37,478 bases of DNA. Source: Alkaliphilus sp. (GTDB taxonomy: Bacteria > Bacillota > Clostridia > Peptostreptococcales > NVVX01). The position numbers were made by a program, and so were the translations under genes. The notes below the pieces were generated by a model. It did not search any database and had not been told where the DNA came from. It saw nothing but the letters and a program-made list of their open reading frames with translations. The stretch is from assembly GCA_002733545.1 (NCBI GenBank), contig NVVX01000014.1, positions 22,040-59,517 on the forward strand, read 5' to 3'. Shown one piece after another: positions 6,046-37,004 of this stretch; within the stretch, counting starts at the first letter, position 1; each line of letters opens with the position of its first letter.

Positions 6046-7110
6046 CTAAATAGAATAATTACCTAGTTCACTAATTTTCACAGATCTAATTACTGTTTGT
6101 CCAATACATCTTAAGAATATAAAGTTGATGGAATCTCCAAATCTTTTCTTATCATTCTTCATAATTTCTTTTAAACTACCATTTACTCCAACATCAGTCT
6201 GGGTAGGCAAATTGAATTTTATTAATATTTCTTTAATTTTCTCAGATGTTCCCTGTTTAGTAATTCCTTTATTTTCAGATATTTTTGTAATTTGATACAT
6301 CCCTATAGCAATTGCTTCCCCATGGGTAAATCCTTCATAATTAAAAGCTTTCTCTAAGGCATGCCCTATGGTATGCCCAAAATTTAATACCATTCTTTGC
6401 CCGTAGTCACGCTCATCTTTAGCAACTACTTCACTCTTTATTTGGCAGCATCGAAAAATAATAGATTCAATTGCATTGAAAACACCATCATGAGATTGTA
6501 ATTTTAAAATTTCGTTAAATAAATTCTCATCATAAATACACCCATATTTTATAACCTCAGCCATTCCGCTAATAAATTCTTTTTGTGGCAATGTTCGTAA
6601 GAGTTGTGGATCAATAAGTACAATTTCAGGATGGTGAAAAATTCCTACTAGATTCTTTCCCTCATCTATATTAACAGCAACCTTTCCTCCGATGCTACTG
6701 TCTACCATAGATAATAGACTTGTCGGTATATGTATTAGTTTAATTCCACGAAGATAGGTTGCTGCTAAAAAACCCGCAAAATCCCCGACAACTCCACCAC
6801 CGAACGCAATAATCAAGTCAAAGCGCGTAATTTCTAAAGTTAAAAGTGATTTATATAGAACTTCCAGATTTGAAAAATGCTTACTTTTTTCTCCGGGTTC
6901 AATAACTATTTGAACAACAAAACAACTCATTTTTTCTAATGTTTTTTGTAATGCTTTACCATATAGTCTATATAAATTTTTATCAGTTATTACCACAATC
7001 CTTTTCATTTGAGAAGTTGTTTGAATGTGATGATTAATTTCACTAAACAACCCATTTTTAATACAAATTTTGTACTGCTTATGTTCTAAGTTTAGTTGTA
7101 TTGTTTTCAT
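6046..7110 (-). CDS. aroB: 3-dehydroquinate synthase
   Basis: GEKSK, GGGVVGDFAGF, PTSLLSMVDSSIGGK, KNLVG, LNFGHTIGHA, HGEAIAIGM, DKK. Confidence 0.97.
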   Translation of the reverse strand: MKTIQLNLEHKQYKICIKNGLFSEINHHIQTTSQMKRIVVITDKNLYRLYGKALQKTLEKMSCFVVQIVIEPGEKSKHFSNLEVLYKSLLTLEITRFDLIIAFGGGVVGDFAGFLAATYLRGIKLIHIPTSLLSMVDSSIGGKVAVNIDEGKNLVGIFHHPEIVLIDPQLLRTLPQKEFISGMAEVIKYGCIYDENLFNEILKLQSHDGVFNAIESIIFRCCQIKSEVVAKDERDYGQRMVLNFGHTIGHALEKAFNYEGFTHGEAIAIGMYQITKISENKGITKQGTSEKIKEILIKFNLPTQTDVGVNGSLKEIMKNDKKRFGDSINFIFLRCIGQTVIRSVKISELGNYSI

Positions 7111-14415: not shown

Positions 14416-14557
14416 TGATAAAACTGTTTGTTAATTCTTTGACTATTCTTTCAATTGCAACCGAAAAGTATTATGATATAAGTATAAGTAATTGTAATAG
14501 TAAATTAATATATTTAATGGTTATTCAAAATAATCTTATTGTAGTCATTAACCACCT

Positions 14558-14767
14558 TTGAAAGGTTTGCCAATGATTACTTCATGTAGTCCTGGATGGA
14601 TAAATTATATTGAGGGTTTTCATCCTGATTTACTCGAACATCTTTCAACCTGTAAGTCGCCCCAACAAATGTTTGGTGCTCTCTCCAAAAACTATCCTAG
14701 TGGATGCATTGGTGGTGGTGGACAACCTATCAGTTCTACTAAAAAAATAGTCACCAAATGTATATAA
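14558..14767 (+). pseudogene. Internally deleted [FeFe]-hydrogenase H-cluster fragment
   Basis: LPMITSCSPGWINYIE...LSTCKSPQQMFGA (L1 motif region) is joined almost directly to PSGCIGGGGQP (L3 motif); L2 and all other domains are missing. Confidence 0.8.
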
Positions 14768-14793
14768 GTTAAAAATTTAACCTGAAACACATC

Positions 14794-14842
14794 TGTAGCT
14801 TCGCAAGCTTTTTTGCAAATTTTCGCAACTTATTCTGCAAAA
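14794..14842 (+). repeat. Predicted prophage terminus with two tandem 22-bp transposase-binding sites
   Basis: TG at 14794-14795, then CTTCGCAAGCTTTTTTGCAAAT (14799-14820) and TTTCGCAACTTATTCTGCAAAA (14821-14842), i.e. positions 6-27 and 28-49 from the end as for Mu R1/R2. Confidence 0.75.
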
Positions 14843-14850
14843 ACACCGCT

Positions 14851-15885
14851 TTATTCAACTTCTTTATTCTCTCTCGTAAGCACCAAATTCTCTAACAGAC
14901 TTTCTTTAAGTTTTTTCGTATCCGCAAAGTCTATATGACCCATATACCCAGCCATAACTCTTTTTACTTCTTCTAATGTCATTTCACCTTTTCTATATTT
15001 CTCGCCTATAATCTTTAAAACCTTCTTTATCCTTCTTTTTGTCTGTGACTTAATAAGAATGTGAGTTGACCACACCCTATATCCTAAAAATGTTACACCT
15101 CTATTAGCTGGGAAAACTTGCGTTTTGCTGTTTGTTTTCAGGTGCAATTCTAAGTCTATATAATCCTCTATACACGCTCTTGTCTGGTGCAATTCTTCTT
15201 TGTTCGAGCCGAGAATAATGAAGTCGTCCATGTATCTTATGTAGTATTTAATTCCTAAGTCTTCTTTCGCAAAATGATCCAACTCGTTCAGGTACGTATT
15301 TGCTAATAATTGTGATGTCAGAGCCCCAATCCCTAGCCCTTTAATCCCTTCGTTGATTTCTATGATCAACTTTAGTAACCACAGCAGGTCAGGATCTTTT
15401 ATTTTCTTCTCGACAATTTGGTATAGAGTTTCTTGAACAATCGAAGGAAAGTATTTTGCAATATCAGCCTTCAAACAATAAACTTTTCCAAACTTTTTTT
15501 CTGCTTCTTTCAGATTATTTTGGAGCTTCGTAACTGCTGCATGTGTCCCTTTGCCTTGTCTACACGCATAATTATCGCTTATAAATGTATCATCGAATAT
15601 AGGCTCTATTATGTTGTTTATAGCGTGATGCAGGACTCTGTCGTAGAAAGCTGGCGCAGAAATCAGTCTTTTCTTTGGAAAATAAGAATAAAAATCTCTA
15701 ATCGGTCGCGGTTTGTATGTTTTCCAAATGAGTTCATTCTGTAAATTTATTAGGCTTTCTTCAAGATTTTCTGTGTATTTTAAAACTTCTCTATCATATC
15801 TTTTGTTTTTTCTGGCCTTTAGGTACGCTAGATGCAAATTTTTAAAATCGTATATTTTTTCATATAGATGACCATGTCTTTTCAA
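14851..15885 (-). CDS. DGR reverse transcriptase
   Basis: KKRLISAPAFYDRVLHHA, YACRQGKGTH, LKADIAKYFPSI, GLGIGALTSQLLANTYL (DGR-type GxxxSQ), YIRYMDDF, FLGY. 344 aa with no maturase or endonuclease domain; TTG start. Confidence 0.96.
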   Translation of the reverse strand: MKRHGHLYEKIYDFKNLHLAYLKARKNKRYDREVLKYTENLEESLINLQNELIWKTYKPRPIRDFYSYFPKKRLISAPAFYDRVLHHAINNIIEPIFDDTFISDNYACRQGKGTHAAVTKLQNNLKEAEKKFGKVYCLKADIAKYFPSIVQETLYQIVEKKIKDPDLLWLLKLIIEINEGIKGLGIGALTSQLLANTYLNELDHFAKEDLGIKYYIRYMDDFIILGSNKEELHQTRACIEDYIDLELHLKTNSKTQVFPANRGVTFLGYRVWSTHILIKSQTKRRIKKVLKIIGEKYRKGEMTLEEVKRVMAGYMGHIDFADTKKLKESLLENLVLTRENKEVE

Positions 15886-16049
15886 TGCCTACCCCCTTTT
15901 TTTTAGAGCGGACGTTCTTCGAGCAAGTGCCTACCAAACGCCCTCTCAGATACTGCATGTATTTACCTCTACAGGAAGGTGATAAACCCCTTTCTCTTCG
16001 TGCACTGGATGCAGACCCATAGGTCTACATCTTCTGGCTTTGAAGACAG
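15886..16049 (-). ncRNA. Structured spacer of the DGR template RNA (between TR and RT)
   Basis: Hairpin GATGTAGACC-TATG-GGTCTGCATC (16031-16008, one G-U pair) and a second stem GGGCGTT...AACGTCC; position equivalent to the BPP-1 spacer. Confidence 0.6.
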
Positions 16050-16157
16050 AGCGGAGCGAAACCCGATGTTCGTGTTCACGTTCGAGCGAACGTTGTTCAA
16101 ATTCAACGCGAAAACTCCAGCACTGGACGAATTGTTCCAATTGCCACCACGTAACGG
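16050..16157 (-). repeat. DGR template repeat (TR) with IMH*
   Basis: Core 16056-16157 aligns without gaps to 16635-16736 with 12 mismatches, all at TR adenines; nine AAY codons in the target frame. Confidence 0.97.
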
Positions 16158-16180
16158 CATATACGGTCTACCACCTGTGC

Positions 16181-16549
16181 TTAATTGCTCTTTTTTATCC
16201 ATCCCCCTAGTATTCTGCCAAGTTCTGCTATTTTCTCAGATATGTTTTTGTACTTGTTGAATGAAAGAAAAGGGCTTCCGTTCGCCTTGCTAGTCAACTC
16301 GCTAGCAAGGCGGAACATTGTTTTTAGATACTGTAATTCAATGTCTATATCTCTTAAAGTTGTCTTTTTGTGATACTTTTTACTAGCCGCAATGAGCATT
16401 TTAAGAATGTTATGCATGCTATTTTTTATATCCGCTGCCATGGTATGCTTTTCGGATTTTGGAAACTCACCTAAGCAAATGTAAACATACCTAATTAAGT
16501 CGTACATCTTTTGTGTTATGATCATTGACTCGTGTTTTTCTTCTGTCAT
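16181..16549 (-). CDS. avd: DGR accessory variability determinant (Avd, four-helix bundle)
   Basis: Basic 122-aa helical protein with FPKSEK and ELGRILGGW motifs, between the target gene and TR. Confidence 0.92.
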   Translation of the reverse strand: MTEEKHESMIITQKMYDLIRYVYICLGEFPKSEKHTMAADIKNSMHNILKMLIAASKKYHKKTTLRDIDIELQYLKTMFRLASELTSKANGSPFLSFNKYKNISEKIAELGRILGGWIKKSN

Positions 16550-16564
16550 TTCTCACCTCGCGCT

Positions 16565-16586
16565 TGTCCTCGCTATCGCTCAGACA
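16565..16586 (-). promoter_or_regulatory. Candidate DGR target-recognition hairpin downstream of VR/IMH
   Basis: Minus strand TGTC-T-GA-GC-GATA-GC-GA-G-GACA, about 28 nt after the target stop codon. Confidence 0.6.
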
Positions 16587-16613
16587 TCAGATTTCATGTT
16601 TTCAGATACCATA

Positions 16614-17681
16614 TTACAGAACAACAAAAGCGGCGCGAAACCCGATGTTCGTGAGCACGTTCGAGCGAACGTAGTACAAAAGCAACGCGAAAACCCCAGC
16701 ACTGGACGAACTGCCCCAACTGCCACCACGCAACGGAAAATACTCCGTATTTGCTACTGTCGCGAACCAGAATCCATCATGTCCGAATTCCGCAACGCCT
16801 GTGACGTCCATGCTCGCTTGTATTCCTTCTTTTGTGATAGCTGCCAGTGTTTTTAATGCCGTTATTTTTTGTCCACTTGTGCCTGAAACGATTACCCCGC
16901 TCGGAACGCCGCCTTTCGTAATTTCACTGTTTCGCAACGTTATTCCCGCTACCCATTCCCAGACATTACCGTTAAGATCGTATACCCCTGTTGTTTTGCC
17001 GTTGTGTGTAGTCAGATTGACTCCAGCGCCCCAGCCTGTTTTTGTTCCTGTGCCAATTAGCGCGCGACCAGCTTGCGTAGGGTCAGCTGTAAACACTACT
17101 GAAGTGTCGTCCACATCTTTTAAGCTGCTGTTATTCCCGTATGGTTGCCAACGATTAGCCCCAAACACAGCAGGACCAATTAGCATGGAATATACCGCAA
17201 GCGATACAGCTTGCTCGTTTGTCATCATTTGTACATTCGAAGCTATGCACGCAGCAACAGAAGCATCCCAATCGACAGAGATCCAAGGTATAACCCCTTG
17301 CCTGCTCGTAGCAAGTGTTCCAACCCCTGCAGCACTGTTACTTGCATCGTTTCTGCTTGCTTGATATTTTCCAGCGTAGAAACCTAAGAACAAGACTTCT
17401 ACATAATCAGCATTTACTATCCCTGTCGCAGGCTCTACACTCACGAAAAAGCCAATTGGTCGACTCGGATGCGAGCACGCAGTCGGATTTATTAGCATAT
17501 ATGCACGAAAACTAGGCTGCCAAACGTAGATACTATTGTCAACTATGAAATCGTGATTCTCGTGTGCGTTTCCAGTGTCTAGCGCGTGCAATTTTTGCGT
17601 TTGAGAGACAAAAACACCGTCACTGTTTTGTGTGAAAGCGCTTGTAGGACTTCCGGCTCCTGTTCTTCTTATCAATATCAC
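16614..17681 (-). CDS. DGR target: Mtd-like / FGE-type C-lectin-fold protein, probable receptor-binding protein
   Basis: GKYQAS, PW, GVYDLNGNVWEW and C-terminal LRGGSW...GVFAL...NIGFRAA; carries the VR; last gene of the tail module. Confidence 0.9.
   Translation of the reverse strand: MILIRRTGAGSPTSAFTQNSDGVFVSQTQKLHALDTGNAHENHDFIVDNSIYVWQPSFRAYMLINPTACSHPSRPIGFFVSVEPATGIVNADYVEVLFLGFYAGKYQASRNDASNSAAGVGTLATSRQGVIPWISVDWDASVAACIASNVQMMTNEQAVSLAVYSMLIGPAVFGANRWQPYGNNSSLKDVDDTSVVFTADPTQAGRALIGTGTKTGWGAGVNLTTHNGKTTGVYDLNGNVWEWVAGITLRNSEITKGGVPSGVIVSGTSGQKITALKTLAAITKEGIQASMDVTGVAEFGHDGFWFATVANTEYFPLRGGSWGSSSSAGVFALLLYYVRSNVLTNIGFRAAFVVL
16629..16736 (-). repeat. DGR variable repeat (VR) with GC-rich/IMH end
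   Basis: Encodes PLRGGSWGSSSSAGVFALLLYYVRSNVLTNIGFR versus TR PLRGGNWNNSSSAGVFALNLNNVRSNVNTNIGFR. Confidence 0.97.
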
Positions 17682-18016
17682 GCCATCACCGCCTTCAGTG
17701 TCGTTATTTCAGTTCCTGTCAAGTCTGTTTCTGTTCCATCCAAAGCAAAACTTAAGCACCAGTAGTTAGTGCTTGTACTTTGAAACACAGTCGCAGACTC
17801 TTCGTCTGACGTCAAGCCTAAAAAATACCCATTCGGCGTAATCATGACCATATAGTCGCCTTCCGATCTAATCGATAAATCAAAAAAAGTTTCTGCCAAA
17901 CTGACCGTTTCTCCATTTATGATTGCGACCCCAGCCGGCATTGTCACATTCATCCCCGCCACAGATGGTGTTATATCATAACTTATATTCTCATATACTC
18001 CTGTGATTGTTTTCAT
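17678..18016 (-). CDS. Hypothetical tail-fibre-region protein
   Basis: 112-aa ORF with GAGG RBS; stop overlaps the start of the DGR target; function inferred from position only. Confidence 0.6.
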   Translation of the reverse strand: MKTITGVYENISYDITPSVAGMNVTMPAGVAIINGETVSLAETFFDLSIRSEGDYMVMITPNGYFLGLTSDEESATVFQSTSTNYWCLSFALDGTETDLTGTEITTLKAVMA

Positions 18017-18031
18017 AATTTCACTTCCTCT

Positions 18032-18586
18032 CTAAAATGTTAAAACAAGCGAGGCAACTTGCAAGTTACCTGTGTGTGTGTCTAGCATGTCATCACCTAT
18101 TCTAGTCAATTTTATGGTAATGGGGTCCCCTGCAATATATGCAGTGTTTGGGATTGTATTCGCAAGTGTCATTATGTGATATCCAGCCCCTACCCCTGGC
18201 GTAACTGTATGTATCGCATCTACGAAAGTTGTACCCTTTATGCTGTATGAAAAATTAATTCTTATGTCACCAGCGTCTGCCTGCCCGACAAAATATCCGA
18301 GATTAATGCTGATATCTCCAGACTCGCCCACAAAACTGCAGATTGCTGTTTGCAAAAAATCTGCTGCAAATTCAATTGTTGGTATTTCTCCAGTTAGTCC
18401 TTGTGTTGGCTCTGCCAGAGGGTCCGCTAACATCACATTAATTTCTACACTTCCAATCGCCTGCGCCGCAACAATACCTTCTTCGATGTTATTCATGATA
18501 GAAGCATTTATGGGCGTTCCGACCTGAATGATGTTTCCTTGTTGATCCTTTATTTGATCGATATGAGTGTTTCTTATATACGCCAC
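18032..18586 (-). CDS. Putative tail fibre/adaptor protein
   Basis: N-terminal GTPINASIMNNIEEGI motif typical of Firmicute phage tail-fibre N-termini; beta-rich remainder. Confidence 0.65.
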   Translation of the reverse strand: MAYIRNTHIDQIKDQQGNIIQVGTPINASIMNNIEEGIVAAQAIGSVEINVMLADPLAEPTQGLTGEIPTIEFAADFLQTAICSFVGESGDISINLGYFVGQADAGDIRINFSYSIKGTTFVDAIHTVTPGVGAGYHIMTLANTIPNTAYIAGDPITIKLTRIGDDMLDTHTGNLQVASLVLTF

Positions 18587-18587
18587 T

Positions 18588-18884
18588 CTACACCACCTCC
18601 TGTATATTTATGTCGAATGCAAACATTATTCCTTGCATGTCTGTCTTTGTAGTTATATCTTGTTTTTCTAAAAAGATTCTCCCCATGTTGTCTAGAAGAA
18701 TGATTTTTGTTATTGTTCCTGTTACTAGATCGTCGAAATAAACAAGTATTCTTATTTTGTTTCCTGTTATTTCAACTTTGTGTATGGCGACCGTCCTAGG
18801 AGCGCCCTCAAATGTCATTTCTGCATGTGTTAAAAAGAGCTCAATACTCTTTGCAATAGCTTCTTTCCCTTGTGTTGTTATCAC
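18588..18884 (-). CDS. Hypothetical baseplate/fibre-attachment protein
   Basis: Probable GTG start 18884 overlapping the upstream TGA, GGAGAGGTG RBS; ITTQGK start resembles fibre-collar N-termini. Confidence 0.55.
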   Translation of the reverse strand: MITTQGKEAIAKSIELFLTHAEMTFEGAPRTVAIHKVEITGNKIRILVYFDDLVTGTITKIILLDNMGRIFLEKQDITTKTDMQGIMFAFDINIQEVV

Positions 18885-19582
18885 AATATCACCTCTCCTA
18901 CCATAAATGTCCCGCATACTCTAAAGTTTTTTGTTGCTATAATGTTAGATGTCTCAAATATGCTTGTGTATGAATGCCCTTTTATTTTATTCATTAACTC
19001 ATTTGATAAGAATGTACCGCATATTGGAAAATTGTATATGCCTGTATTATAAGACGTTTGTAGTCGCAATGTTGAATTGTAAAAATAGCCGTAATTTGGT
19101 AGAGCACTCGCTGGTTTTGTTCTTCTAATTTCTTTCTGCAAAGCCAAAAGGTTGTCTAGTGTGTTTAATTCGCCCTTGTCTACAAATACAATGAACTCCG
19201 CCCATCTCAGCAAATCTGTTTTATAGAGCGATTCAATGTATGCGTTTTCATGCCCTATACCTTTAAGCGCAATTAGCATCCCTTCGCTAGTCCCAGCTTT
19301 TCCTGCAATCACTTTTTTCAGCATAAGTCTATTTCTGAAAAGTTCCTCGCTTTCGTCATGCAGGCGTTGCATGCTTCTGTCTGCGCCATGTTGATTGAGC
19401 ATTTCCATAGAAGCACTCACAGCCATGGATTCTTCCCTAGCTTTGAAAATATCTTCTTTCGTCTTTTCGGCTATCCCCCCGAGAACTCTAAAAAATATTT
19501 GCAATTGATTCTTGTGGTTTACGACCTTTTTTAGTGGATTGTGGAGCAAGTAATACATGTATTCACAAAATTTATCAAACAT
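18881..19582 (-). CDS. Baseplate wedge protein (P2 gpI / Mu gp48-like)
   Basis: Follows baseplate J; LNQHGADR...ESEELFRNRL, KAGT, KPAS motifs. Confidence 0.7.
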   Translation of the reverse strand: MFDKFCEYMYYLLHNPLKKVVNHKNQLQIFFRVLGGIAEKTKEDIFKAREESMAVSASMEMLNQHGADRSMQRLHDESEELFRNRLMLKKVIAGKAGTSEGMLIALKGIGHENAYIESLYKTDLLRWAEFIVFVDKGELNTLDNLLALQKEIRRTKPASALPNYGYFYNSTLRLQTSYNTGIYNFPICGTFLSNELMNKIKGHSYTSIFETSNIIATKNFRVCGTFMVGEVIL

Positions 19583-19584
19583 GC

Positions 19585-20715
19585 CTACACCCTCTCAATA
19601 ATCACAGTTACGCTACCTAGGACAATAACCTTGTCATTTTGCAAAATTACATCGCCCGCAGGAGTTGTTATTTTGACATTTCTTAAAATACTTATCTCTT
19701 TTTTGAGCGCGAATATCAAGTCTGCTATATACAATTCGTTCAACTTTCTCTCTTTGGTCATTTTAAAAGCATCTGCAATTATTGATACCACCTTATTTTC
19801 TATCCCTGTGACATCAGTTAGAATTGGAATATAGATCGATACGCTCACATTCTGCGTTACTGCTTGCGCTGATTTCACGAGCAAGTTGTCGTGTGGCGCT
19901 CTTATTTTTTCAGCTTCCAATTTGACTTCGTCAAGGAGTATCTGTGTAGCTTCTCCAGCTGTGGATGTGATAATTATATCCACTGTTCCCTGCCCGCGTG
20001 GATGCATGTCGTCCACCGTAGCGAACAAAACTCCTGGCACTGCTTCGCATACAGTTCTGTACTTACCACTAATCGGATATGCTGCTAGCTCAGCCCATGA
20101 ATTGAGAATTCTTCCCCTGAACATCTCATCACTCTCAACATCACTTCCTTCTCGTGTAACCCACCCTCCCTCGTTTACAATCTCGTCTATCCCCTCAATG
20201 TAAACTAAAGACTTCTTTATTTGCCCTGATGGTAGATTGTATTTGATTCCTTCTCTTTCTGCTTCTACCAAAACTTCTGTAGATAAAATATTCTTTGCTA
20301 AAAATACGTCTTCCGTAGAAACAAACCTGAACTCTTCTCCATTTATATCCTTTTCTGTCTTAAAAACATTTCCTTTTGCAATTTTCAAGTTTGTGGTCGC
20401 TACAGTTCTTTTTAATGTCAAATTCCCCATAGTTTTTGTAGCTTCTTTCCTTTTCTTTGAATAGTCCGCGCCTTTGAAATCAAGCCAAATCCCATCAGCA
20501 GATGAGACGAACATATTTGATAACACCGTCCTGAGAAGTTTCACAAGTTCGATTCTAATCTGAATGAATATCATGATAATTGTGAAAAAGATTCCACCAC
20601 TATTGAAATTGTTTATGCTGAACCCTTCTGCTTCGAGTTCGCTAATTATCTCATCTTTTAGTCCATCTCGATCTGGTATAGGAATAACTCCATCTAAGAC
20701 TTTCTCACTCATCAT
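19585..20715 (-). CDS. Baseplate J / Mu gp47-family protein
   Basis: ADGIWLD, GIKYNLPSGQI, GSDVESDEMFRGRI, VPGV, PRGQGTVDIII. Confidence 0.92.
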   Translation of the reverse strand: MMSEKVLDGVIPIPDRDGLKDEIISELEAEGFSINNFNSGGIFFTIIMIFIQIRIELVKLLRTVLSNMFVSSADGIWLDFKGADYSKKRKEATKTMGNLTLKRTVATTNLKIAKGNVFKTEKDINGEEFRFVSTEDVFLAKNILSTEVLVEAEREGIKYNLPSGQIKKSLVYIEGIDEIVNEGGWVTREGSDVESDEMFRGRILNSWAELAAYPISGKYRTVCEAVPGVLFATVDDMHPRGQGTVDIIITSTAGEATQILLDEVKLEAEKIRAPHDNLLVKSAQAVTQNVSVSIYIPILTDVTGIENKVVSIIADAFKMTKERKLNELYIADLIFALKKEISILRNVKITTPAGDVILQNDKVIVLGSVTVIIERV

Positions 20716-21125
20716 CTCACGATCACCACCTCTACATTGAGTCTGTCAAGAACTATATTAAGTTCTTGTTCTTTTTCATAGCCATCACATTTGAACTTTA
20801 CTCGTATTAAAAACCTATCTTCCTCATTTGACATAGTAACCTTTATTGATTCCGCATCAACTTCTAGTCGCTTGCCAAGCTTTTCAACTATCCTTTGCTT
20901 CAATTCAATTCTTACTAGATTATCATCTTCAGCCTGAACAAAATCCAAAAGAGACCAGCCATACTCTTCATCATAAAACACTTCTTTTTCTTGTGTCAAA
21001 GCTTCATGCCTAATGTCTTGTTGTAAACACTCAAAACCTGTAACTAAAGCCGCATCGCCGTTAGCCGCTTTAGCAATCTGCATCTCACTATCTATTCTTA
21101 CATCCGTGTTATAAAATCCTACCAT
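20712..21125 (-). CDS. Baseplate wedge/sheath initiator (gp25 / Mu gp46-like)
   Basis: NGDAALVTG...LQQDI...YDEEYGWSL pattern; immediately upstream of J. Confidence 0.7.
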   Translation of the reverse strand: MVGFYNTDVRIDSEMQIAKAANGDAALVTGFECLQQDIRHEALTQEKEVFYDEEYGWSLLDFVQAEDDNLVRIELKQRIVEKLGKRLEVDAESIKVTMSNEEDRFLIRVKFKCDGYEKEQELNIVLDRLNVEVVIVR

Positions 21126-21403
21126 TAGGTCACCTTCTCAATAATATATGCACGGCTGAGCTTCCCATAAAGCAAGCCAATTACAACAATGTCCCCAAGT
21201 GCAAAAATGCTATTGCTTCTCACATTAGAAATCCTTGGAAATCTTACATCAGCCACTTTACTTTCGTCAAGAATTTGCAAATCGTGCTCGTTTCCCGAAA
21301 TCCTCGTTACCCTCGCATAAAGCAAGCTCGGAACTCTTAAGTGCGCATACTCTCTTCCTAGCAAGCTTTTAAATTTAGCGTCTATCATTGTCTCTATCAT
21401 CAC
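21125..21403 (-). CDS. Putative short baseplate spike protein
   Basis: ARVTRI...P.ISNV...GDIVVIGLLYG looks like the spike OB-fold; position between hub and wedge. Confidence 0.55.
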   Translation of the reverse strand: MMIETMIDAKFKSLLGREYAHLRVPSLLYARVTRISGNEHDLQILDESKVADVRFPRISNVRSNSIFALGDIVVIGLLYGKLSRAYIIEKVT

Positions 21404-22173
21404 ACGTCACCCTTGAAATATATTTTACTTCTTGCAAAGCCATTTCCTGTAGTTGAAAATATCACTTTAGTTACTTCAAATTCTCCTGTTGTTTTCGGAT
21501 GCACTACCCTTATTTCTTGAGAGTGCCTTACAAGTGGAGCTGCTACCGTCTGAAGCTCCCAAAGCCCATTTTCAAAGTTTAAGTCTATAATATTAACTGC
21601 ATACTCAAACTCATAATTTGTGCTTTGATTTGGCTTGTCTCCCCAGTAAAAAGTCTTGTCTGCGAAGAAGAAAGCCTCCTGTATCCCCCATAGATTGTGT
21701 ATCTCTTCAATCACATCAATCGCACTCATTCTGAATACAGGAACTACTTTCTTTATCTGATGCGTTTTGTTTGTCAATTTAAAACTCTGAATATCTGCTT
21801 CTCTTAAGACGTGCTCAATCATCTCGCGAGGCGCAACGTCAATGAAGGTGTTTGTGATGATTGTCTTTTCAAGCTTGAGCATGTCGTCTTTTAAAATGAT
21901 TTCGTTCTGTTGAGAACCTCCCAAAGTATTTATAGACTCTTTTGCGTACCCCTTAAAAACATCCTCAAATGCCCCATTGTACCCCAACTTAACAATTGCC
22001 TCGTCTAGCTTATTAATTATGACCTCCTCACCAAGCTGTTCTGTAAAGATTATCTTCGCCCAGTCAAAATACGAAGATGCAGCTGAGTGAACTTCTACTT
22101 CTACTCCTTGTGAAAAAGAGTAAGAACCTATCTCTACTTTTAATTCAGGATAGAAAAAATCATTAGTATTCAC
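21400..22173 (-). CDS. Putative baseplate hub protein (P2 gpD / Mu gp44-like)
   Basis: VKLGYNG...VFKGY...DDMLKL pattern and position after the TMP and tube initiator. Confidence 0.65.
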   Translation of the reverse strand: MNTNDFFYPELKVEIGSYSFSQGVEVEVHSAASSYFDWAKIIFTEQLGEEVIINKLDEAIVKLGYNGAFEDVFKGYAKESINTLGGSQQNEIILKDDMLKLEKTIITNTFIDVAPREMIEHVLREADIQSFKLTNKTHQIKKVVPVFRMSAIDVIEEIHNLWGIQEAFFFADKTFYWGDKPNQSTNYEFEYAVNIIDLNFENGLWELQTVAAPLVRHSQEIRVVHPKTTGEFEVTKVIFSTTGNGFARSKIYFKGDV

Positions 22174-22184
22174 AACTACACCTC

Positions 22185-22775
22185 CTAAAATGGGACTATC
22201 CCTAATCTTGATTTAAAGTCAATTGTGCTTGCAGTGTCAATGGCAGGAGACTTCGCAGTCTTAGATGATCTGCCTTCTAAATACTCTCTAAACTCGTCAC
22301 TTAGAGCAATTTCTGTTTTAGTAATGACTTTCTTAACTTCTTTCTCAACTGGAGCGCTCTTTACTGCTGTTATCTTTATAGGTATGTACTCCCAAAATTC
22401 GAGTGTTGCTGAAATTTCAGACTTTCCACTTTTTTCCTTCGTGTTTAAATCTTTTAATATTACTCTTGTGACTCCCCTTGCGCTTGTATGTTCGTTTATT
22501 ATCTCATGTACAATAGGTTTCTTTTGCCCCGCTTTTTTGAATAGCGCTTGTATTGTCGCAAGCTTCTCTAACGCTGTTTTCCCACTGTCATCCAAGAGCC
22601 TAAGTTCAAGATACATCTTCGCATCACTATACCCTGTTGCTTGCTTTGGCTTTGTTTTCTTGCCTTTTATATCAATTTCTTCTACTCTAGCACTGCCTTT
22701 GATTTCAAAGCTCTTATATATACCAGGAAGGATAACACCTCCTACTTTAACGGTACTCTCATCAATAATTAGCAT
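22185..22775 (-). CDS. Putative tail tube initiator / baseplate protein
   Basis: 196-aa ORF directly after the tape measure; ATLEFWEY motif; assigned by synteny. Confidence 0.55.
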   Translation of the reverse strand: MLIIDESTVKVGGVILPGIYKSFEIKGSARVEEIDIKGKKTKPKQATGYSDAKMYLELRLLDDSGKTALEKLATIQALFKKAGQKKPIVHEIINEHTSARGVTRVILKDLNTKEKSGKSEISATLEFWEYIPIKITAVKSAPVEKEVKKVITKTEIALSDEFREYLEGRSSKTAKSPAIDTASTIDFKSRLGIVPF

Positions 22776-22789
22776 GTTACCCCACCTTT

Positions 22790-25243
22790 TTATATTGGAT
22801 TTGGTTCTGGACTATTTGAGTTGTTATAGTCCTCAATTTCTTTTAGCAGCCTTAAAAGCAATGGAATCTCTTTGATTTTTTCTAGGTCAACATTGATAGT
22901 TATATATTGATTTGCGCCTTCGATTTTTTCCTTGCTCTTTTTTTCTACGTGGAAAGCTTCTTTTTCCTTGGATATTTCTTTTAGCGAAATCTTTTCAATC
23001 TTTCTTTCTTTCATTGAAAAGTCATCATTTTTCAATGTGTCCTTGTAGTTTAATTCCACGCTCTCAAATGCTTCTTTGGTTGTCTGAGCAGGCAAGTGCT
23101 TAGTCTTAATCATTCCTGTATTTATTGTTTCAAATACGCTTGCTCCCGAGAGTGTCAAGGAAGATAACGGACCCTCTTTTGCATCACTAAAAGGTAGTAA
23201 CTTTCTAATTCTTCCTAGCGCGCCTTTAACCATGTCAATTGGCTTGGAGATAGTTTTCTTGATGCCGCTTGCCAAGGTCTCCATTATCTTCTTTCCTGAA
23301 TTCGAAATATCGGGTAAAAAGTTTGTAAAGAAGCTAGTAAACCCTGTCTTTATGCCAGTCCAAATGTCTGTGAAAAAAGCCTTTATCTTGCCCCAGTTCT
23401 TAAATATAAGCATTGGTATTCCGATAAACGGGAATATTGCTGCTATAAGTGCCACAAAACCATTAGGCATAGAGGTGACTTTTTCTTTAATCCAATTAAA
23501 ACCATTAACAGCGCCTTGCACAGCGCCGTTCCATGCGCCACTTAAAAACGATACTACCGAGTCCCAATTTTGCCAAAGCAACACTAATGCTGCAATGAGT
23601 GCAATGATTCCAATTACAACCCATGTGATGGGATTCGCTAAGAGCGCAGCTGTAAACGACCACACCGAAGCGATTAGCCCAGGCATTGCTTTAACTCCTG
23701 TTAAAACCGCCTGCTTCCCCATTCCATACATTCCTATAGTCATTTTTTTAATAGAACTAGCTCCACTGATAACTGCTGTTTTACCCATCTTAACAATAGA
23801 TGATCCCACGTTTTTAATGCCTGTTGCCGCAGAAGATGAATATTTTTTTATGTTTGTGAACCCATTCTTGATTGCATCCCCTGCATACATAGAGCGTATT
23901 CGCATGCTCTCTAAAAGCCCTGGTATCCCTTTTATGGCTCTAGCAAAGCCTTTGAAATTCCCTATAGTTTTTACTGTTATTAGACCAATCCCACCAATTG
24001 CTAGATTTAACCCCCCAAACACTATAAGAGCTAATCCTGTAGCTAGTATTAAGTGCATGAACATCCTAAATAGCGTTTCATTTTCTCCTATCCAGACACT
24101 AAGCCACGCGACAATGTCAAGGCCTTTGTTTACCATGTTCATGAAAGTAGGTAGTAGTTGATTTCCTATCATTTCTTTTAAGTTCTTAATTTGCTGTTTC
24201 AATATTTCATATCTAGCTCCAGGGTCTTTATTCATCGCTACAGCCATATTGGTTGCTAGTTCTGTTCCTTCTCCCATGGAACCATGCATACTCACAATTC
24301 CAGATTGTAGTAAATTGGTTTTGTCACGCAGTGTTTCTATCAACGCAACTGCTTCTTGAGTTCCAAAAGCCTCCTGTAGCTCCATTCTTTCAATTGCATC
24401 AAACGTGTCTCCATATTTGCCTTCTAATTCCCCTAGTATTTCAGGCATAGAACGAATTTGATTGTTCGCATCTAAAAAAGCTAACTCTAGAGCTTCTCCT
24501 GCTTTTCCAGCGCTTCGCAAAAACGCTTTGTACTGCGTTCCCGCTTCGCTGCCTGACATAGTTCCTTGCAATATACCAAGAACACTCAATTGTTCCTCTA
24601 ACGGAATCTGCGCCGAGGTTGCAGCAGCTCCTAAAGTCCTAATCGAGGCAGACATTTCTGCTCCTGTTGTTCTAAACTTCTCAGTAGATTGCGAAATCCC
24701 TGCGGCGAATATCTTCCCAAATTCAATATCAGTCATTTCAGAGTAAAAATTCTTGTGTATCCCATGCCCCATTGCGAACAAAGAGGTCATTTCACCTACT
24801 GTAGATTTGGTGGCTTTCCCAGTTAATGCCGCAAGCCTAGTATACTCCGCCACCGCAGTATCACTAAGACTTGATATCCCTGATTTAATGTCATAAGCTG
24901 CTGTTATGAATTCTGACTTCGTAGTCCCAGCCCACGTATTTGAGAAATCAATTCCTGCTTGCTCAAGTGCTTTTAAATCTTTAATGCCTACAGAACTTAG
25001 CTCGCCTAAAGCCTTTTTAGTTTCGAAGGTAGCTTTGACAGGCGAGAGCGCAACTGTTGCAATTTGACTTCCTACTAATCCCATAGCAAGCCCCGCACTT
25101 GTCATGCCAGAAAAACTCTGTTTTGCCCTTTCGAGTTTGCCTATAGTTTGATCTAGACCTGTATTTATCCTTGCAGTTGGTCCAGAGAGGTTATCAATCA
25201 TACTCACTATTACTGATAATCTAAATATTGACTCCAAACTCAC
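22790..25243 (-). CDS. Tail tape measure protein
   Basis: 817 aa, Ala/Gly-rich helical; GSEAGTQYKAF core, ALLANPITWVVIGIIAL and periodic W/F repeats; ends LPFSDAKEGPLS. Confidence 0.93.
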   Translation of the reverse strand: MSLESIFRLSVIVSMIDNLSGPTARINTGLDQTIGKLERAKQSFSGMTSAGLAMGLVGSQIATVALSPVKATFETKKALGELSSVGIKDLKALEQAGIDFSNTWAGTTKSEFITAAYDIKSGISSLSDTAVAEYTRLAALTGKATKSTVGEMTSLFAMGHGIHKNFYSEMTDIEFGKIFAAGISQSTEKFRTTGAEMSASIRTLGAAATSAQIPLEEQLSVLGILQGTMSGSEAGTQYKAFLRSAGKAGEALELAFLDANNQIRSMPEILGELEGKYGDTFDAIERMELQEAFGTQEAVALIETLRDKTNLLQSGIVSMHGSMGEGTELATNMAVAMNKDPGARYEILKQQIKNLKEMIGNQLLPTFMNMVNKGLDIVAWLSVWIGENETLFRMFMHLILATGLALIVFGGLNLAIGGIGLITVKTIGNFKGFARAIKGIPGLLESMRIRSMYAGDAIKNGFTNIKKYSSSAATGIKNVGSSIVKMGKTAVISGASSIKKMTIGMYGMGKQAVLTGVKAMPGLIASVWSFTAALLANPITWVVIGIIALIAALVLLWQNWDSVVSFLSGAWNGAVQGAVNGFNWIKEKVTSMPNGFVALIAAIFPFIGIPMLIFKNWGKIKAFFTDIWTGIKTGFTSFFTNFLPDISNSGKKIMETLASGIKKTISKPIDMVKGALGRIRKLLPFSDAKEGPLSSLTLSGASVFETINTGMIKTKHLPAQTTKEAFESVELNYKDTLKNDDFSMKERKIEKISLKEISKEKEAFHVEKKSKEKIEGANQYITINVDLEKIKEIPLLLRLLKEIEDYNNSNSPEPNPI

Positions 25244-25245
25244 GT

Positions 25246-25811
25246 CTAGCTCCCCCCTTCAGAAAAGACCTTCGCTATAGCTCTAGCCATTGTGTTTTCT
25301 TCCATTTCTTGAACAATTCTCGCATATGCAAGCGCCCTCATAAATTCTTCAATATCCATCTCTTTTATTTCTTTTTTTAGCAGCTCTAGAGGAACGTATC
25401 TGTATATTTCTATCGTTCCTGATTCTACGAAGTTGCTTTTAACAGCCTCTAGTTGTTCTTCTAAAGCAGCTTGAAATTTGTTGTTTTAGGCAATCCCAAC
25501 ATACTGAGAAGTTTTTCACCTACCCCTAAACCAAGTGCAGGATATTTCTCTAGTTGACTTTCAATTTCTTCAAGTTGTTCTTCTATGATGTTATCTCTTA
25601 CAAAGTTGTTCATAGCTCTTATGCTGTCTTTTGACATGTCTCTTATATACCTATTAAATGACGATGTCTTAGGCTTTTTAAAATAGAACAGCATTGCTAC
25701 AGTTTCATACTCGCCACGTGGCTCAATTTCTGTCTTAATCTCATATAACTTCCCATATTTCTTCTTTAGTTCTTCAACCTTCAAACTTTTTTCTTTGCTT
25801 TTATCTTCCAT
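25246..25811 (-). CDS. Tail assembly chaperone: 116-aa short form (25461-25811) and ~188-aa -1 frameshift form
   Basis: Between tube and TMP; slippery A AAT TTC at 25479-25473; the -1 frame stays open for 75 codons to TAG at 25248-25246. Confidence 0.85.
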
Positions 25812-25858
25812 TTTACTTCCTCCTAAAAATAGTATTTGTCATTTATCTTGCGAATTTT

Positions 25859-26293
25859 CTACATAGGACTTAGTCCATCTCTTTCAATTTCGCCTACGAC
25901 CAAAAGGTCTAGGTCGATCTTTAATGACTTATCACCCTGTGCGTTCTTGTGACTTGTTTTTGTTATTGTGACTAGATTAAGAACGTCAATCTTAGTTCTT
26001 TGATGTGTGCTTGCAAAGCTTACCGTTATTTTAGGTATTACAAGCTTGTATAACGCAACTCCTTGTCGTTTGCAATGCCTAATTAAGTCATCAAAATCAT
26101 CTCTAAGCAAGCTCATCTTTGCAGATGCTTTATAATTCCCTTCGCCATACCCTCTCGCTTTTTGTCCCTTGCCATAAACTGTCTCCTTCTCAAGTTCATC
26201 GTCGTAACTTATCTCTTGAGCTTCAATTTCGAGTCCTGGTATCTTGATTGAGATGTCTCCCCAATCGTATGCTTTCCCATTTATTACAGCCAT
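25859..26293 (-). CDS. Tail tube protein
   Basis: INGKAYDW, ISYDD, YGKG...GYGEGNYKAS; follows the sheath gene. Confidence 0.82.
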   Translation of the reverse strand: MAVINGKAYDWGDISIKIPGLEIEAQEISYDDELEKETVYGKGQKARGYGEGNYKASAKMSLLRDDFDDLIRHCKRQGVALYKLVIPKITVSFASTHQRTKIDVLNLVTITKTSHKNAQGDKSLKIDLDLLVVGEIERDGLSPM

Positions 26294-26304
26294 TTAACTT
26301 CCTC

Positions 26305-27714
26305 CTAACTTAGCAATGGATTTTCCATCGCCATATCGATTTCGATTTCTCTAAGGTGCCCAATTGGTACATACCTAATTTTCAAATTCAACTTTTCAGT
26401 TCCAAGAATATCCTGCCCTTCAGGAACAATAATTCTTGCTGAAGATATTTCTTTGTCTCTTACCATTTTGTCAGCTGGTACTTGAATAAATTTAGCTATT
26501 GCTTCTAGACTTCCTTCTAGATCATCCATATCCACTTGTGTTTGGATTTGCAAAAGAGCTTCCTTTCTTGTTTCTCTTACAAGCTTATTTGCAACCCTCA
26601 CTCGTTCAGCGTATTTGAAATCTGAACCATCTTGCGACATCATTCTAGCGTTTGTTACAAAGAACCCTTCAAGCCCTACATACTCTCTCAAAGTAAGAAA
26701 CTTGGCTTCGTCTAAAGCTCCAATATGCTCTTCGATTCCCGCTGGCAAAAGTTCTAATATCCCTGCTACTGCAAAAACTCGTGTCTCACCGATGGACTGC
26801 TGTACTTTTGCTCTTGAGTATAAGCCACACGCAATAGAAGCGCAATTTACATCGCGTACAGAACCATCCATCTTCGCGTACAACGCCCTAGCTGTAGCTA
26901 CTTGAATGTATCTCGAAACAATGCCCGCTCTTTCAGTTATGAGACTGCTTGTATATTCTCCTGCCGCCTCATTTGTGTTTATGTTCCTAGCCTCAAGCAC
27001 AAAGAAAATAGGCTTGAAGTGCATACTAAAGAAGTTTTCCGCCTCAACTGCCAATGCCGCCCAAAGCGCTTTAGTTGACTCTCCAACAACGTGAATGTAC
27101 TCAAAGCTAAAACTTGAGTTCTTAATTACATTAAGAGCATTTAAAACGTCTTGGTTGGTCATTTGTGGTGCTGTAGTCAAAAAGCTAATTTTATCTCCTG
27201 TGTTGTATGAGTTTGGCACGTCTATGTCTTCTGTGAATGTTAAAGTAAGTCCAGTTTCAGGAAGTACAAAGCTACCTCCTACTGTGAGAGTTGTCTCTTG
27301 CGAGAAGCTATGCCCTCCGTCAATAGAATATTTAAAAGTTGCTACGTTAAATCCGCCACCTTCAATAAATTCTATTTCTACATGGTAGAAATTGTTTGGG
27401 TTTCCTGTAGCAGTACATATCCCTTTTCCTGTTCCCGTTTTTTCAATAGCTTCAATAGTTCCGTCTGTAGAAGCTTGAACAGGCAAGCAATAAATGCCGT
27501 TTGCTCCTGCTGATACACTGTCCATGCATGAGTCTGCAAGAGGGCTGTTGCCTAACTTTTCCTTTATTTTCTCTGCGTTCATGCTACCTGTAATTGAAAT
27601 TAGATTAGCGCTCACTATAGGTGATACACCTATCTTTACATGCACTCCTTCTCCCTTTATACTTGAAGAACCAAGCCCACCATCTGTAATGTTGATTTTT
27701 ACACCCTTAAGCAT
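26305..27714 (-). CDS. Contractile tail sheath protein (DUF2586-like)
   Basis: V.INITDGGLG start, SDFKYAERVRVANK, LKIRYVPIG end; 469 aa upstream of the tube. Confidence 0.85.
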   Translation of the reverse strand: MLKGVKINITDGGLGSSSIKGEGVHVKIGVSPIVSANLISITGSMNAEKIKEKLGNSPLADSCMDSVSAGANGIYCLPVQASTDGTIEAIEKTGTGKGICTATGNPNNFYHVEIEFIEGGGFNVATFKYSIDGGHSFSQETTLTVGGSFVLPETGLTLTFTEDIDVPNSYNTGDKISFLTTAPQMTNQDVLNALNVIKNSSFSFEYIHVVGESTKALWAALAVEAENFFSMHFKPIFFVLEARNINTNEAAGEYTSSLITERAGIVSRYIQVATARALYAKMDGSVRDVNCASIACGLYSRAKVQQSIGETRVFAVAGILELLPAGIEEHIGALDEAKFLTLREYVGLEGFFVTNARMMSQDGSDFKYAERVRVANKLVRETRKEALLQIQTQVDMDDLEGSLEAIAKFIQVPADKMVRDKEISSARIIVPEGQDILGTEKLNLKIRYVPIGHLREIEIDMAMENPLLS

Positions 27715-27911
27715 TATTTTGCCACCTTCCCTCTAAGAGAGGATCCTAGAAAATCCTTAATTGCACTTTCAAATTCTTTCTTTGTTACCATCTTGCCACT
27801 CGACCACCCTTTAAAAGCAGAGGCTCCAACAAAAATAGCTTTGTCAATTTGTTTGTCTTTTGCTAATTTCTCAATACTGATTTGTTCTTCTACTCCTTTT
27901 TTTACTGCCAT
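27714..27911 (-). CDS. Small hypothetical phage protein
   Basis: 65-aa ORF with GAGGAGG-like RBS, coupled to the sheath gene. Confidence 0.65.
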   Translation of the reverse strand: MAVKKGVEEQISIEKLAKDKQIDKAIFVGASAFKGWSSGKMVTKKEFESAIKDFLGSSLRGKVAK

Positions 27912-27913
27912 GC

Positions 27914-28396
27914 TTATTCCTCCTCTACGCTTACGTCTTGTAGTTTTTTATATGTGACGTCTCTATAAATCCCACCACGAAAACTTATTAATATTTGAAC
28001 AGCCATCTTACTCCTAAGTATGCTATCTTTTTCATCAACCCATGCAGCACCCTCTACTTCAATGTATATATAGTTGCCCCTTAGGTCTAATAGCCCTCTG
28101 TCTAGCGACTCCATAAATTTTAGAAATATTTCTTCGCATTTGCTAATAGAGTATTCTCCAATGGTTACTGAATAGTAAGCTTGCCTATCAAATGTTTTGG
28201 TTCTTTTCTTTTTTGCAATGCCTTCGTAGTACACTTTTTTTGAATCAGCTCGTTCGAATTTTTCTTTTTCAAAGAGAACTGCCCCTATATGAGAATCTCT
28301 GCAAAGATTCACTTCTTTTTCTGTTGTGCGTATCATTCCTTTAATTCCTGCTTGTACCAATTTCTCTTTTAAATATTCCATACAAAGCCCAATCAT
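27914..28396 (-). CDS. Putative tail completion/terminator protein
   Basis: 160 aa between the neck genes and the sheath; assigned by synteny. Confidence 0.55.
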   Translation of the reverse strand: MIGLCMEYLKEKLVQAGIKGMIRTTEKEVNLCRDSHIGAVLFEKEKFERADSKKVYYEGIAKKKRTKTFDRQAYYSVTIGEYSISKCEEIFLKFMESLDRGLLDLRGNYIYIEVEGAAWVDEKDSILRSKMAVQILISFRGGIYRDVTYKKLQDVSVEEE

Positions 28397-28887: not shown

Positions 28888-28891
28888 ATTC

Positions 28892-29338: not shown

Positions 29339-29347
29339 TCAAATCAC

Positions 29348-30235: not shown

Positions 30236-30252
30236 ATCTCATTCAACCTCCC

Positions 30253-31674: not shown

Positions 31675-31723
31675 CTGTTTGTTTTTTCACCTCCTGCTGC
31701 CATGTTAGTCTTTTAAAATGACC

Positions 31724-31745
31724 GCGTTATCGCGCGCGATAACGC
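31724..31745. promoter_or_regulatory. Perfect 22-bp palindrome upstream of the protease gene (candidate late-regulator site)
   Basis: GCGTTATCGCG|CGCGATAACGC in the largest intergenic gap of the head module. Confidence 0.55.
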
Positions 31746-31803
31746 ATGTTGTAGCCTTAAATCATGCCTTTTGCTACCTAAACTACTTAGAAACTGTTTA
31801 GGC

Positions 31804-34075: not shown

Positions 34076-34086
34076 ATACTCGCCTC

Positions 34087-36996: not shown

Positions 36997-37004
36997 GCTT
37001 CCCC

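Follow-up and report, generated by a model that had tools for sequence, protein, structure and literature searches.

What does a Mu-like phage carry at its right end, where Mu carries the invertible G segment, gin and mom? The question is raised by a window of 37,478 nucleotides from Alkaliphilus sp. (positions 22040-59517 of contig NVVX01000014.1, here called C9), in which positions 14794-37478, read on the minus strand, appear to be the late half of one intact Mu-type transposable prophage. The module nearest its right end is a diversity-generating retroelement (DGR). The explanation that we consider likely is that this last module is a canonical, exchangeable DGR that varies host range at the map position of the Mu G segment.

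A DGR adjoining the right end of the prophage

The module comprises a target gene, an accessory gene (Avd), a template repeat (TR) and a reverse transcriptase (RT) gene, in the order of a canonical DGR, and family matches to its proteins are consistent with this assignment. Its components, the variable repeat (VR) and the adjoining phage terminus are:

14789 to 14793, no strand: right copy of the target-site duplication ACATC; the other copy is at C65:7125-7129, on the contig that holds the left end, and the two copies directly abut the TG and CA termini in direct orientation
14794 to 14850, minus strand: right end of the phage (attR-like), with terminal TG (CA on the phage strand) and two tandem 20-nucleotide repeats
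14851 to 15885, minus strand: DGR RT, 344 amino acids (PF00078, E 3.5e-20; phrog_1423, E 5.4e-133)
16050 to 16164, minus strand: TR, in the spacer between Avd and RT
16181 to 16549, minus strand: Avd accessory protein, 122 amino acids (PF22296 bAvd, E 1.2e-31, score 109.8 against a curated cut-off of 40 bits; phrog_3206, E 1e-32)
16614 to 17681, minus strand: DGR target, 355 amino acids, C-type-lectin/FGE fold (phrog_2889, E 1.7e-31; PDB 5vf4, E 3e-8 by sequence)
16629 to 16743, minus strand: VR, which codes for the last ~40 residues of the target and ends 15 nucleotides ahead of the stop codon

The presence of a DGR, which had been predicted earlier from the letters of the sequence (hereafter the original prediction), is thus borne out component by component. 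The RT translation holds a YMDD box and the motif IGALTSQ (IGxxxSQ); a YxDD box and [I/L]GxxxSQ are motifs of DGR-type RTs. TR and VR differ at 15 of 115 nucleotides, and 13 of the 15 mismatches lie at TR adenines, of which there are 25. These 13 adenine substitutions show that at least one homing event has taken place. One of the two mismatches elsewhere is a T/G difference at position 110 of 115, in a GC-rich 3' stretch that resembles an initiation-of-mutagenic-homing (IMH) element. The TR is paired with one VR in the genome, and no third copy was found.

A structural model of the target, built with 30 homologues, has a predicted local distance difference test (pLDDT) of 83.4 and a predicted template modelling score (pTM) of 0.88. 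Its best fold matches are TaqVP (E 3.6e-13, TMq 0.52) and BPP-1 Mtd (Foldseek E 3e-5, TMq 0.29-0.32), followed by FGE enzymes. The Pfam scan assigned no family to the N-terminal half of the target. When the cassette was compared with phage records by blastn, the TR region alone was matched, in four records, and the predicted RNA fold of the TR and spacer was no better than that of shuffled sequences (z -1.33). An open reading frame (ORF) of 77 amino acids at 15969-16202 is a mere translation of the TR and matches the same PHROGs as the C-terminus of the target. Five more RT-like loci occur in the genome (on contigs C44, C53, C36, C20 and C56); they are 25-31% identical to the DGR RT, and none matches this TR.

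Termini and Mu-type gene content

On the plus strand of the window, the right end reads ACATC followed directly by TGTAGCTTCG, the phage starting at 14794. The left end, on contig C65, reads GAATCTACA followed directly by ACATC, with the junction at 7124/7125. Three-way alignments were made with two close relatives, a prophage in Anaerovorax sp. IOR16 (L033) and a 34.4-kb IMG/VR contig (L034), and at both ends conservation stops exactly at the TG and CA bases. The genome end that had originally been predicted at 14794 is therefore exact, agreeing with the TG terminus, with the duplication and with the base at which the similarity of relatives stops. So is its predicted distance of 57 bp from the RT stop codon (14851-14853), since exactly 57 bases, 14794-14850, lie between them. 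A left end at C65:6939, which shares ACAGATGT, was ruled out: its flank is the reverse complement of ACATC, and the alignment of the relatives places the end at 7124.

A 20-nucleotide repeat, TTCGCAA-N7-TGCAAA, occurs at 14800-14819 and 14822-14841, 6 bp inside the right end, and these are its only exact matches in the window. Inverted copies are found near the left end at C65 7099-7118 (one mismatch, 6 bp inside) and at 6982-7001 (exact, about 120 bp farther in). These end repeats are putative transposase-binding sites, and their spacing is one that we take to be reminiscent of Mu attR and attL.

The joining of C9 to C65 is based on the ends, the duplication, the relatives carrying MuA and Baseplate J, and synteny, because the contigs end without overlap. 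The MuA-like protein of C65 is 82% and 81% identical to those of the two relatives, whose Baseplate J proteins are 73% identical to that of the window, and in Anaerovorax sp. IOR16 the MuA and Baseplate J genes are on one contig. Anaerovorax, of the class Clostridia, is also the nearest named prophage host. The insertion point lies 65 bp past the stop codon of recA. In a genome of the same genus as the host (G002), 10.6 kb separate the MnhE-like flank from recA on a single contig; it gives no exact empty site, because this intervening DNA is unrelated to the window's genome.

Genes on C65 agree with the original view of a Mu-like transposable phage, in addition to the TG..CA ends and the 5-bp duplication. 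The MuA-like protein (627 amino acids, C65 2090-3973) matches Mu-transpos_C (PF09299, E 3.2e-13), rve, DDE_2 and phrog_310 (E 5e-105), and is 23% identical to Mu A across 87% of its length. It is followed by a MuB-like protein of 314 amino acids (C65 1098-2042; AAA_22; phrog_296, "DNA transposition protein", E 2.9e-40). Upstream of MuA are a Ner-like helix-turn-helix protein and a divergent repressor, with recA farther out. The early half of the prophage thus appears to occupy the rest of C9 and C65:1-7124.

In the window, all long ORFs across 14851-37436 are on the minus strand, and the GC content rises from ~0.29 in the host part to 0.36-0.45 from 15 kb onward. Pfam and PHROG scans of 31 minus-strand ORFs of the window identified, beyond the genes that are listed individually, the following:

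20712 to 37436, minus strand: remaining Mu-like late module, with baseplate, tape measure, tube, sheath (DUF2586), Phage_tail_S, Gp36, gpT capsid, protease I, Mu F, Portal_Mu, large terminase, Gp27-like small terminase and holin (Pfam/PHROG)

Matches within this module include Portal_Mu (E 6.5e-114), gpT capsid (E 1.3e-99), the DUF2586 sheath (E 6.9e-93) and protease I (E 1.6e-77). Genes for Mor, an amidase endolysin of 528 amino acids, a 3D-domain protein and GemA lie in the other 4.2 kb of C9. The prophage therefore has the Mu-type regulatory and morphogenetic set of repressor/Ner, GemA, Mor, Gp27, Portal_Mu, F, I, gpT and Gp36, and its size is at least 34.0 kb (22,685 + 4,194 + 7,124 bases) plus the gap between the contigs.

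Two Mu-transpos_C genes were found in a search of the genome, one on C65 and the other on C40. The C40 pair (~27100-29200; L009 7112-9170), which consists of a 420-amino acid rve and Mu-transpos_C transposase and a 267-amino acid AAA_22 ATPase, was rejected as part of the prophage; because it has no adjoining phage genes, it is regarded as a separate small element. The Anaerovorax genome also carries a second MuA gene (G041:C12:9076-10982), 81% identical to the C65 protein and broken by TAA stops, which by its sequence is a decayed second prophage.

The DGR lies at the position of the Mu G segment

The genes between the DGR and the rest of the late module are:

19585 to 20715, minus strand: Baseplate J, the equivalent of Mu gp47 (PF04865, E 4.7e-29; 73% identical in two relatives)
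18881 to 19582, minus strand: tail or baseplate protein in the gp48 position, 233 amino acids (phrog_34969, E 3.3e-57)
18588 to 18917, minus strand: first small ORF, 109 amino acids (phrog_7177, E 2.4e-19)
18032 to 18586, minus strand: second small ORF, 184 amino acids; its N-terminal ~40-50 residues alone are common to the second small ORF of relatives
17678 to 18016, minus strand: third small ORF, 112 amino acids, with no detectable relative

In Mu (NC_000929.1), gp47 (Baseplate J type) and gp48 are followed by S, U, U', S', gin, com, mom and the right end. In the prophage, Baseplate J and the gp48-like gene are followed by three small ORFs, the target, Avd, the TR, the RT and the right end. 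This correspondence of gene order supports the placement of the DGR, gene for gene, at the S-U-U'-S'-gin position, straight after the equivalents of gp47 and gp48. The com/mom position is vacant, as the 57 bp between the RT stop codon and the terminus leave it empty.

Searches for the Mu functions themselves gave a consistent result. Scans of the 31 window ORFs against Pfam and PHROG found no match to long fibres, recombinases or Mom, and resolvase/invertase families from Pfam matched no phage ORF, including those of the early half. When Mu Gin, Mom, S and U were compared with the whole genome by tblastn, no Mom, S or U match was obtained, and two Gin-like matches are both on other contigs (C75 and C43). 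Two opposed fibre sets between inverted repeats are absent: every ORF within 14851-20715 is on one strand, and the inverted repeats in 14500-18700 are three weak ones only, of 21-27 nucleotides at 74-76%. The original prediction had a DGR in the G-segment/gin/mom slot of a Mu-like phage, with no long fibre pair, invertase or mom-like gene after the baseplate; the gene order, the family scans and tblastn all agree with it. In the searched portions of the literature, no passage was found that explicitly has a DGR take the place of the G segment.

The prophage and Mu are therefore alike in the map position next to the right end and in the presumed task of varying a receptor-binding part of the tail. 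They differ in means: Mu uses serine-recombinase inversion between two fibre sets, whereas the prophage would use RT-driven adenine mutagenesis of one lectin fold.

Three short ORFs had been predicted to lead to the target, and three are found, of 109, 184 and 112 amino acids; the originally predicted end of the region, at 18586, excludes the first of them. The 109-residue ORF is the conserved first small ORF after gp48 in DGR-bearing relatives, 32% identical to that of phage Mushu (described below) and 33% to that of the Anaerovorax prophage. The 184-residue protein, possibly a fibre or adaptor, is 33% identical over 52 amino acids to its Anaerovorax counterpart and 54% over 39 amino acids to one from an uncultivated virus genome. 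Its nearest Atlas clusters are viral hypothetical proteins (0.93); the Atlas leads Mtd_N (0.77) and T4_gp9_10_N (0.79) fell under the naming level and were set aside. Searches of PDB sequences with the 184- and 233-residue proteins returned nothing meaningful. The 112-residue ORF has no Pfam or PHROG family match and no tblastn match in seven compared phages.

Alternative contents of the slot in related phages

Related loci were collected from IMG/VR with a profile of five Baseplate J proteins, and the best 80 of 114 confirmed loci, L034 among them, were retained; their Baseplate J proteins are 40-73% identical to that of the window. Slots were classed by tblastn (E<=1e-5) with RT, Avd, lectin and Ig-like targets, Mu Gin, Mom, S and U, tyrosine recombinase and Villandry fibre proteins; detection depends on this query set, and a contig ending ahead of the RT may score "no DGR". 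The classes are:

30 of 80 loci: Avd, RT and Ig-like target, in that order
2 of 80 loci: lectin target, Avd and RT, in that order
2 of 80 loci: lectin target, cut by the contig end
20 of 80 loci: no DGR
3 of 80 loci: no DGR, with a tyrosine-recombinase match
23 of 80 loci: too short (less than 2.6 kb downstream)

Clustering of Baseplate J at 95% nucleotide identity gave 43 clusters, of which 15 have a DGR, 17 lack one and 11 are too short. Downstream of Baseplate J, a DGR is thus present in 15 of 32 assessable clusters, and a Gin-, Mom-, S- or U-like gene in none of the 80 loci at the same tblastn threshold. Since relatives have a DGR in the same slot, its insertion independently of the phage is not indicated, although the cassette is exchanged between phages.

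Twelve DGR-negative loci were selected, and 44 ORFs from 11 of them (L123 was left out) were scanned with Pfam; the slot holds tail-collar fibres, fibre-repeat proteins, a beta-helix protein or lectin-tipped fibres. In a Villandry-like cluster, the slot holds a short fibre with an H-lectin/Gp53-like tip, an opposed spare tip cassette and a tyrosine recombinase of 336 amino acids. Two contigs of this cluster (L120 1900-7402 and L124 5050-9290) are 99.4% identical up to the fibre gene; beyond it the recombinase-bearing segment is inverted and its neighbours are reshuffled, with inverted repeats of 22-55 nucleotides as boundaries. This arrangement has the features of a shufflon-like invertible tail-fibre region after the gp48-like gene. 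Within a single phage lineage, programmed inversion and DGRs are thus true alternatives for this slot, although its invertase is not Gin-like. The slot as a whole is a mosaic hot spot that contains one of two DGR layouts, plain fibres or a tyrosine-recombinase shufflon. An Ig-like/Hoc-like protein without a detectable RT occupies the slot in three loci (L086, L115 and L073), immediately after Avd in the case of L086, and these may be DGRs that have decayed.

The cassette is exchanged between phages

The two close relatives share 11,634 bp at 93.5% identity, a stretch that ends about 516 bp into the gp48-like gene. From there on they have nothing in common (L033 11634-16070, L034 11634-16756) until a 48-bp match at the right end. 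The L033 cassette has the order lectin target, Avd, TR and RT, whereas that of L034 has Avd, TR and RT, then a Big_9 (Ig-like) protein of 629 amino acids with the VR. In this layout, which is of the Mushu type, the VR of the L034 target (14526-16415) is at 15132-15235, about 200 codons into this protein downstream of the RT, and is not C-terminal. DNA similarity of the window to L033 and L034 (71%) also ends inside the gp48-like gene, at 19177 and 19232, respectively. Past gp48, blastn of the window against both relatives gives TR/VR-region matches to L033 only, and about 55 bp at the right end align with the relatives in the three-way alignment and not in blastn. The window RT is 43% and 38% identical to the RTs of L033 and L034, and 45% identical to those of phages BalMu-1 and Vibrio ZX4290.

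Because relatives that are 93.5% identical carry unrelated DGR cassettes, the stretch from mid-gp48 to the right end behaves as a cartridge that Mu-like phages trade by recombination, and the break in homology within the gp48-like gene marks its left edge. The original prediction stated that this lineage had swapped inversion for a DGR. That claim holds in the sense that the two are interchangeable cartridges, but finds no support in the sense of a lineage abandoning Gin inversion: no Gin-type ancestor is visible, because none of the 80 related contigs has a Gin-, Mom-, S- or U-like gene, and the ancestral state cannot be read because cassettes are exchanged horizontally. Descent from a Mu-like ancestor whose Gin-type invertible fibre segment was replaced by a DGR would fit the shared map position with S-U-U'-S'-gin and the inversion in the Villandry-like contigs. 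However, that inversion system uses a tyrosine recombinase rather than a serine recombinase, and DGRs also fill the slot in distant Mu-like phages of Bacillus, Pseudomonas and Vibrio. Together with the absence of Gin-like genes and the horizontal exchange, these facts make such a descent very improbable.

A more specific proposal, which we offer as a speculative possibility, is that everything from mid-gp48 to the right end (gp48 C-domain, all three small ORFs, target and DGR core) constitutes a self-contained cartridge for host range. Its transfer between Mu-like phages would proceed by homologous recombination, with the coding sequence for the gp48 N-domain and the right end that binds the transposase as the two conserved anchors. 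Since a transposable phage multiplies in the form of many integrated copies, the VR of each copy could be rewritten separately, and one burst would then yield a library of receptor variants.

Proposed function and competing explanations

The phage appears to have inserted by DDE transposition downstream of recA, leaving the 5-bp duplication. The steps proposed for its DGR are based on the mechanism of Bordetella phage BPP-1, as outlined in PMC6199706. The TR and spacer would be transcribed, and the RT with Avd would make cDNA from the TR RNA, with random bases opposite TR adenines. This cDNA would replace the VR, which is predicted to encode the ligand-binding face of the C-type-lectin protein, and up to about a dozen surface residues could be changed. 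Most of these residues correspond to Asn codons in the TR. The distal receptor-binding part of the baseplate would be made up of the target, the products of the small ORFs (all three) and the gp48-like protein's C-terminal half, with the gp48-like C-domain and the small ORFs as adaptors for the target. We place the target at the distal baseplate because of its position and because of what DGR-negative relatives have in the slot. If these proteins form the receptor-binding part, the module would vary host range, as the G segment does in Mu.

Several observations weigh against this explanation. Comparison of the end of C9 with all contigs found no overlap, which leaves a gap between C9 and C65. 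The flanks of the Anaerovorax prophage (L039 ~2003-2015 and L033 ~16117-16125) suit a 6-bp duplication (GATATA) and not one of 5 bp, the register being ambiguous owing to an AT repeat. The Pfam FGE-sulfatase match of the target, at 17.5 bits, is under the curated cut-off of 23.3 bits. BPP-1 has a hairpin element after its VR, and in the prophage the predicted DNA fold downstream of the VR is no better than that of shuffled sequences (z -0.23). In the contigs of four metagenome runs no letter differs, these being assembled (Logan) contigs in which the VR has no cover in run X6 and part cover in X8, with X1 and X2 possibly the source. Finally, the target that occupies the slot in relatives of the Mushu type has an Ig domain, and its annotation is that of a Hoc-like decoration of the head.

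This last observation would fit a target that is not a receptor-binding tail tip but another kind of diversified adhesin, such as a decoration of the virion with affinity for particles or polymers, or a product of the lysogen. So would the fact that the best fold match, TaqVP, which we take to be a cellular protein, is listed only as a DGR variable protein, and the lack of an assigned family for the N-terminal half of the target. On the other hand, the target gene continues the run of baseplate genes on the same strand and overlaps at its start (17678-17681) with the stop codon of the small ORF before it. BPP-1 Mtd, a tail receptor-binding protein, is among the fold matches of the target, and in DGR-negative relatives this place is taken by tail-collar fibres, fibre repeats or beta-helix proteins. 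In view of these points, an adhesin of another kind is unlikely, and a receptor-binding tail protein is preferred.

The lack of variation in the contigs of four runs, and of a hairpin near the VR, could also mean that the prophage or its DGR is an inactive relic, in which the differences between TR and VR record old homing only. Prophage DNA occurs in 11 runs from 6 studies, labelled subsurface, seawater or marine metagenome, and 5 of these runs may be the source; in X6, a run of another study, a contig bridges the same insertion junction. This recurrence is consistent with a relic, as is the degradation of DGRs in some relatives, such as L086, in which no RT match was found. However, no ORF of the module is interrupted, the catalytic motifs are preserved, the duplication and the two termini show no defect, and the adenine substitutions record at least one homing event. 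Moreover, contigs cannot establish that the VR is invariant, because assembled contigs drop rare variants. A relic is thus rather improbable, and the DGR of the prophage may be active at present.

Relation to known systems

A DGR in this slot of a Mu-like phage is not new, as the layout can be recognized in phages Mushu, BalMu-1, Bise and ZX4290. The original prediction cited precedent in gut transposable phages; the pairing is indeed known, but the precedent is wider and not limited to the gut, including Mu-like phages of Bacillus, Pseudomonas and Vibrio.

Mushuvirus mushu (BK063464.1), a Mu-like myophage of Faecalibacterium/Oscillospiraceae, has a sheath (45% identical), tube (60%), Baseplate J (48%) and gp48-like protein (35%) related to those of the prophage. 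It likewise has Baseplate J, a gp48-like gene, three small ORFs and a DGR as the final module before the right end. It differs in its order of Avd, TR, RT and target, in its Ig-domain Hoc-like target, with no C-type-lectin protein upstream of Avd, and in its RT, which is 30% identical. Mushu is from the gut, whereas DNA of the prophage is from subsurface and marine samples.

Bacillus phage BalMu-1 (NC_030945.1), a Mu-like myophage, has the same order as the prophage, with an XkdT-type baseplate protein, a structural protein, three small ORFs, a lectin target, Avd and RT. Its RT, Avd and target are 45%, 50% and 30% identical to those of the window, respectively. BalMu-1 differs in its PBSX-like tail (Baseplate J 26% identical) and in the holin and endolysin after the RT, where the prophage has nothing. 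No paper devoted to BalMu-1 was found in the literature searched. The same order also occurs in Pseudomonas phage Bise (OR683401.1), another Mu-like myophage, as Baseplate J, a tail protein, three ORFs, the target, a four-helix-bundle protein and RT. Unlike the prophage, Bise has a DNA adenine methylase gene (37001-37825) after the RT, at the right end, where Mu has mom. Vibrio phage vB-Vv-ZX4290, a Mu-like siphophage, has target, Avd and RT at the right end.

Bordetella phage BPP-1, which is not known to be a transposable phage, resembles the prophage in the order of target, Avd, TR and RT, in having its VR at the C-terminus of a C-type-lectin fold, and in the adenine specificity of the differences. 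It differs in that its Mtd matches the target model far more weakly than TaqVP does, and in its hairpin after the VR, of which no counterpart better than shuffled sequence was found in the prophage.

The title of Toussaint (2013) pairs Mu-like prophages of Firmicutes with DGRs, and PMC5883640, PMC4406082 and PMC8705779 cite this work for the pairing. Mushu is a Mu-like phage for which Cornuault et al. 2018 (PMC5883640) report a DGR, repeats of 5 bp and host DNA that varies at the virion ends. The same paper terms its VR variability, after what should be one multiplication cycle, "remarkable". Within the literature seen, this is the nearest published observation to the idea of many independently diversified VR copies. 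Hankyphage of Bacteroides combines a Mu-like transposase, 5-bp direct repeats and a DGR in one phage, according to PMC6199706, and 'Ca. Mubacviridae' of Bacteroidales pair MuA/MuB with DGRs according to a 2026 preprint (bioRxiv 10.64898/2026.05.11.724261). By these descriptions, both differ from the prophage in host phylum, in structural module and in having a target of unknown fold.

The present prophage adds a well-delimited DGR-bearing Mu-like phage whose ends, duplication and cassette edges are exact and whose DNA is from subsurface and marine samples instead of the gut. It also permits a direct comparison in which the slot after gp48 accepts alternative host-range devices, a principle already published. 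In practice, it offers a clean system for asking how much VR diversity arises per transposition-replication burst.

Early-region and flanking sequences

The early region between MuB and GemA (C65 1-1074 and C9 62674-63711) is at least 2.1 kb, compared with ~1.0 kb in the Anaerovorax prophage, and the two are non-homologous. It includes a MazE/AbrB-like ORF of 52 amino acids at the contig edge. In the host part of the window, an ORF of 69 amino acids on the plus strand (14558-14767) is what remains of the large subunit of an [FeFe]-hydrogenase (Fe_hyd_lg_C, E 7e-18, covering only profile positions 69-112) and stops 27 bp ahead of the prophage's duplication. The prophage did not split this gene and the truncation is older, because the other phage flank is the recA terminator.

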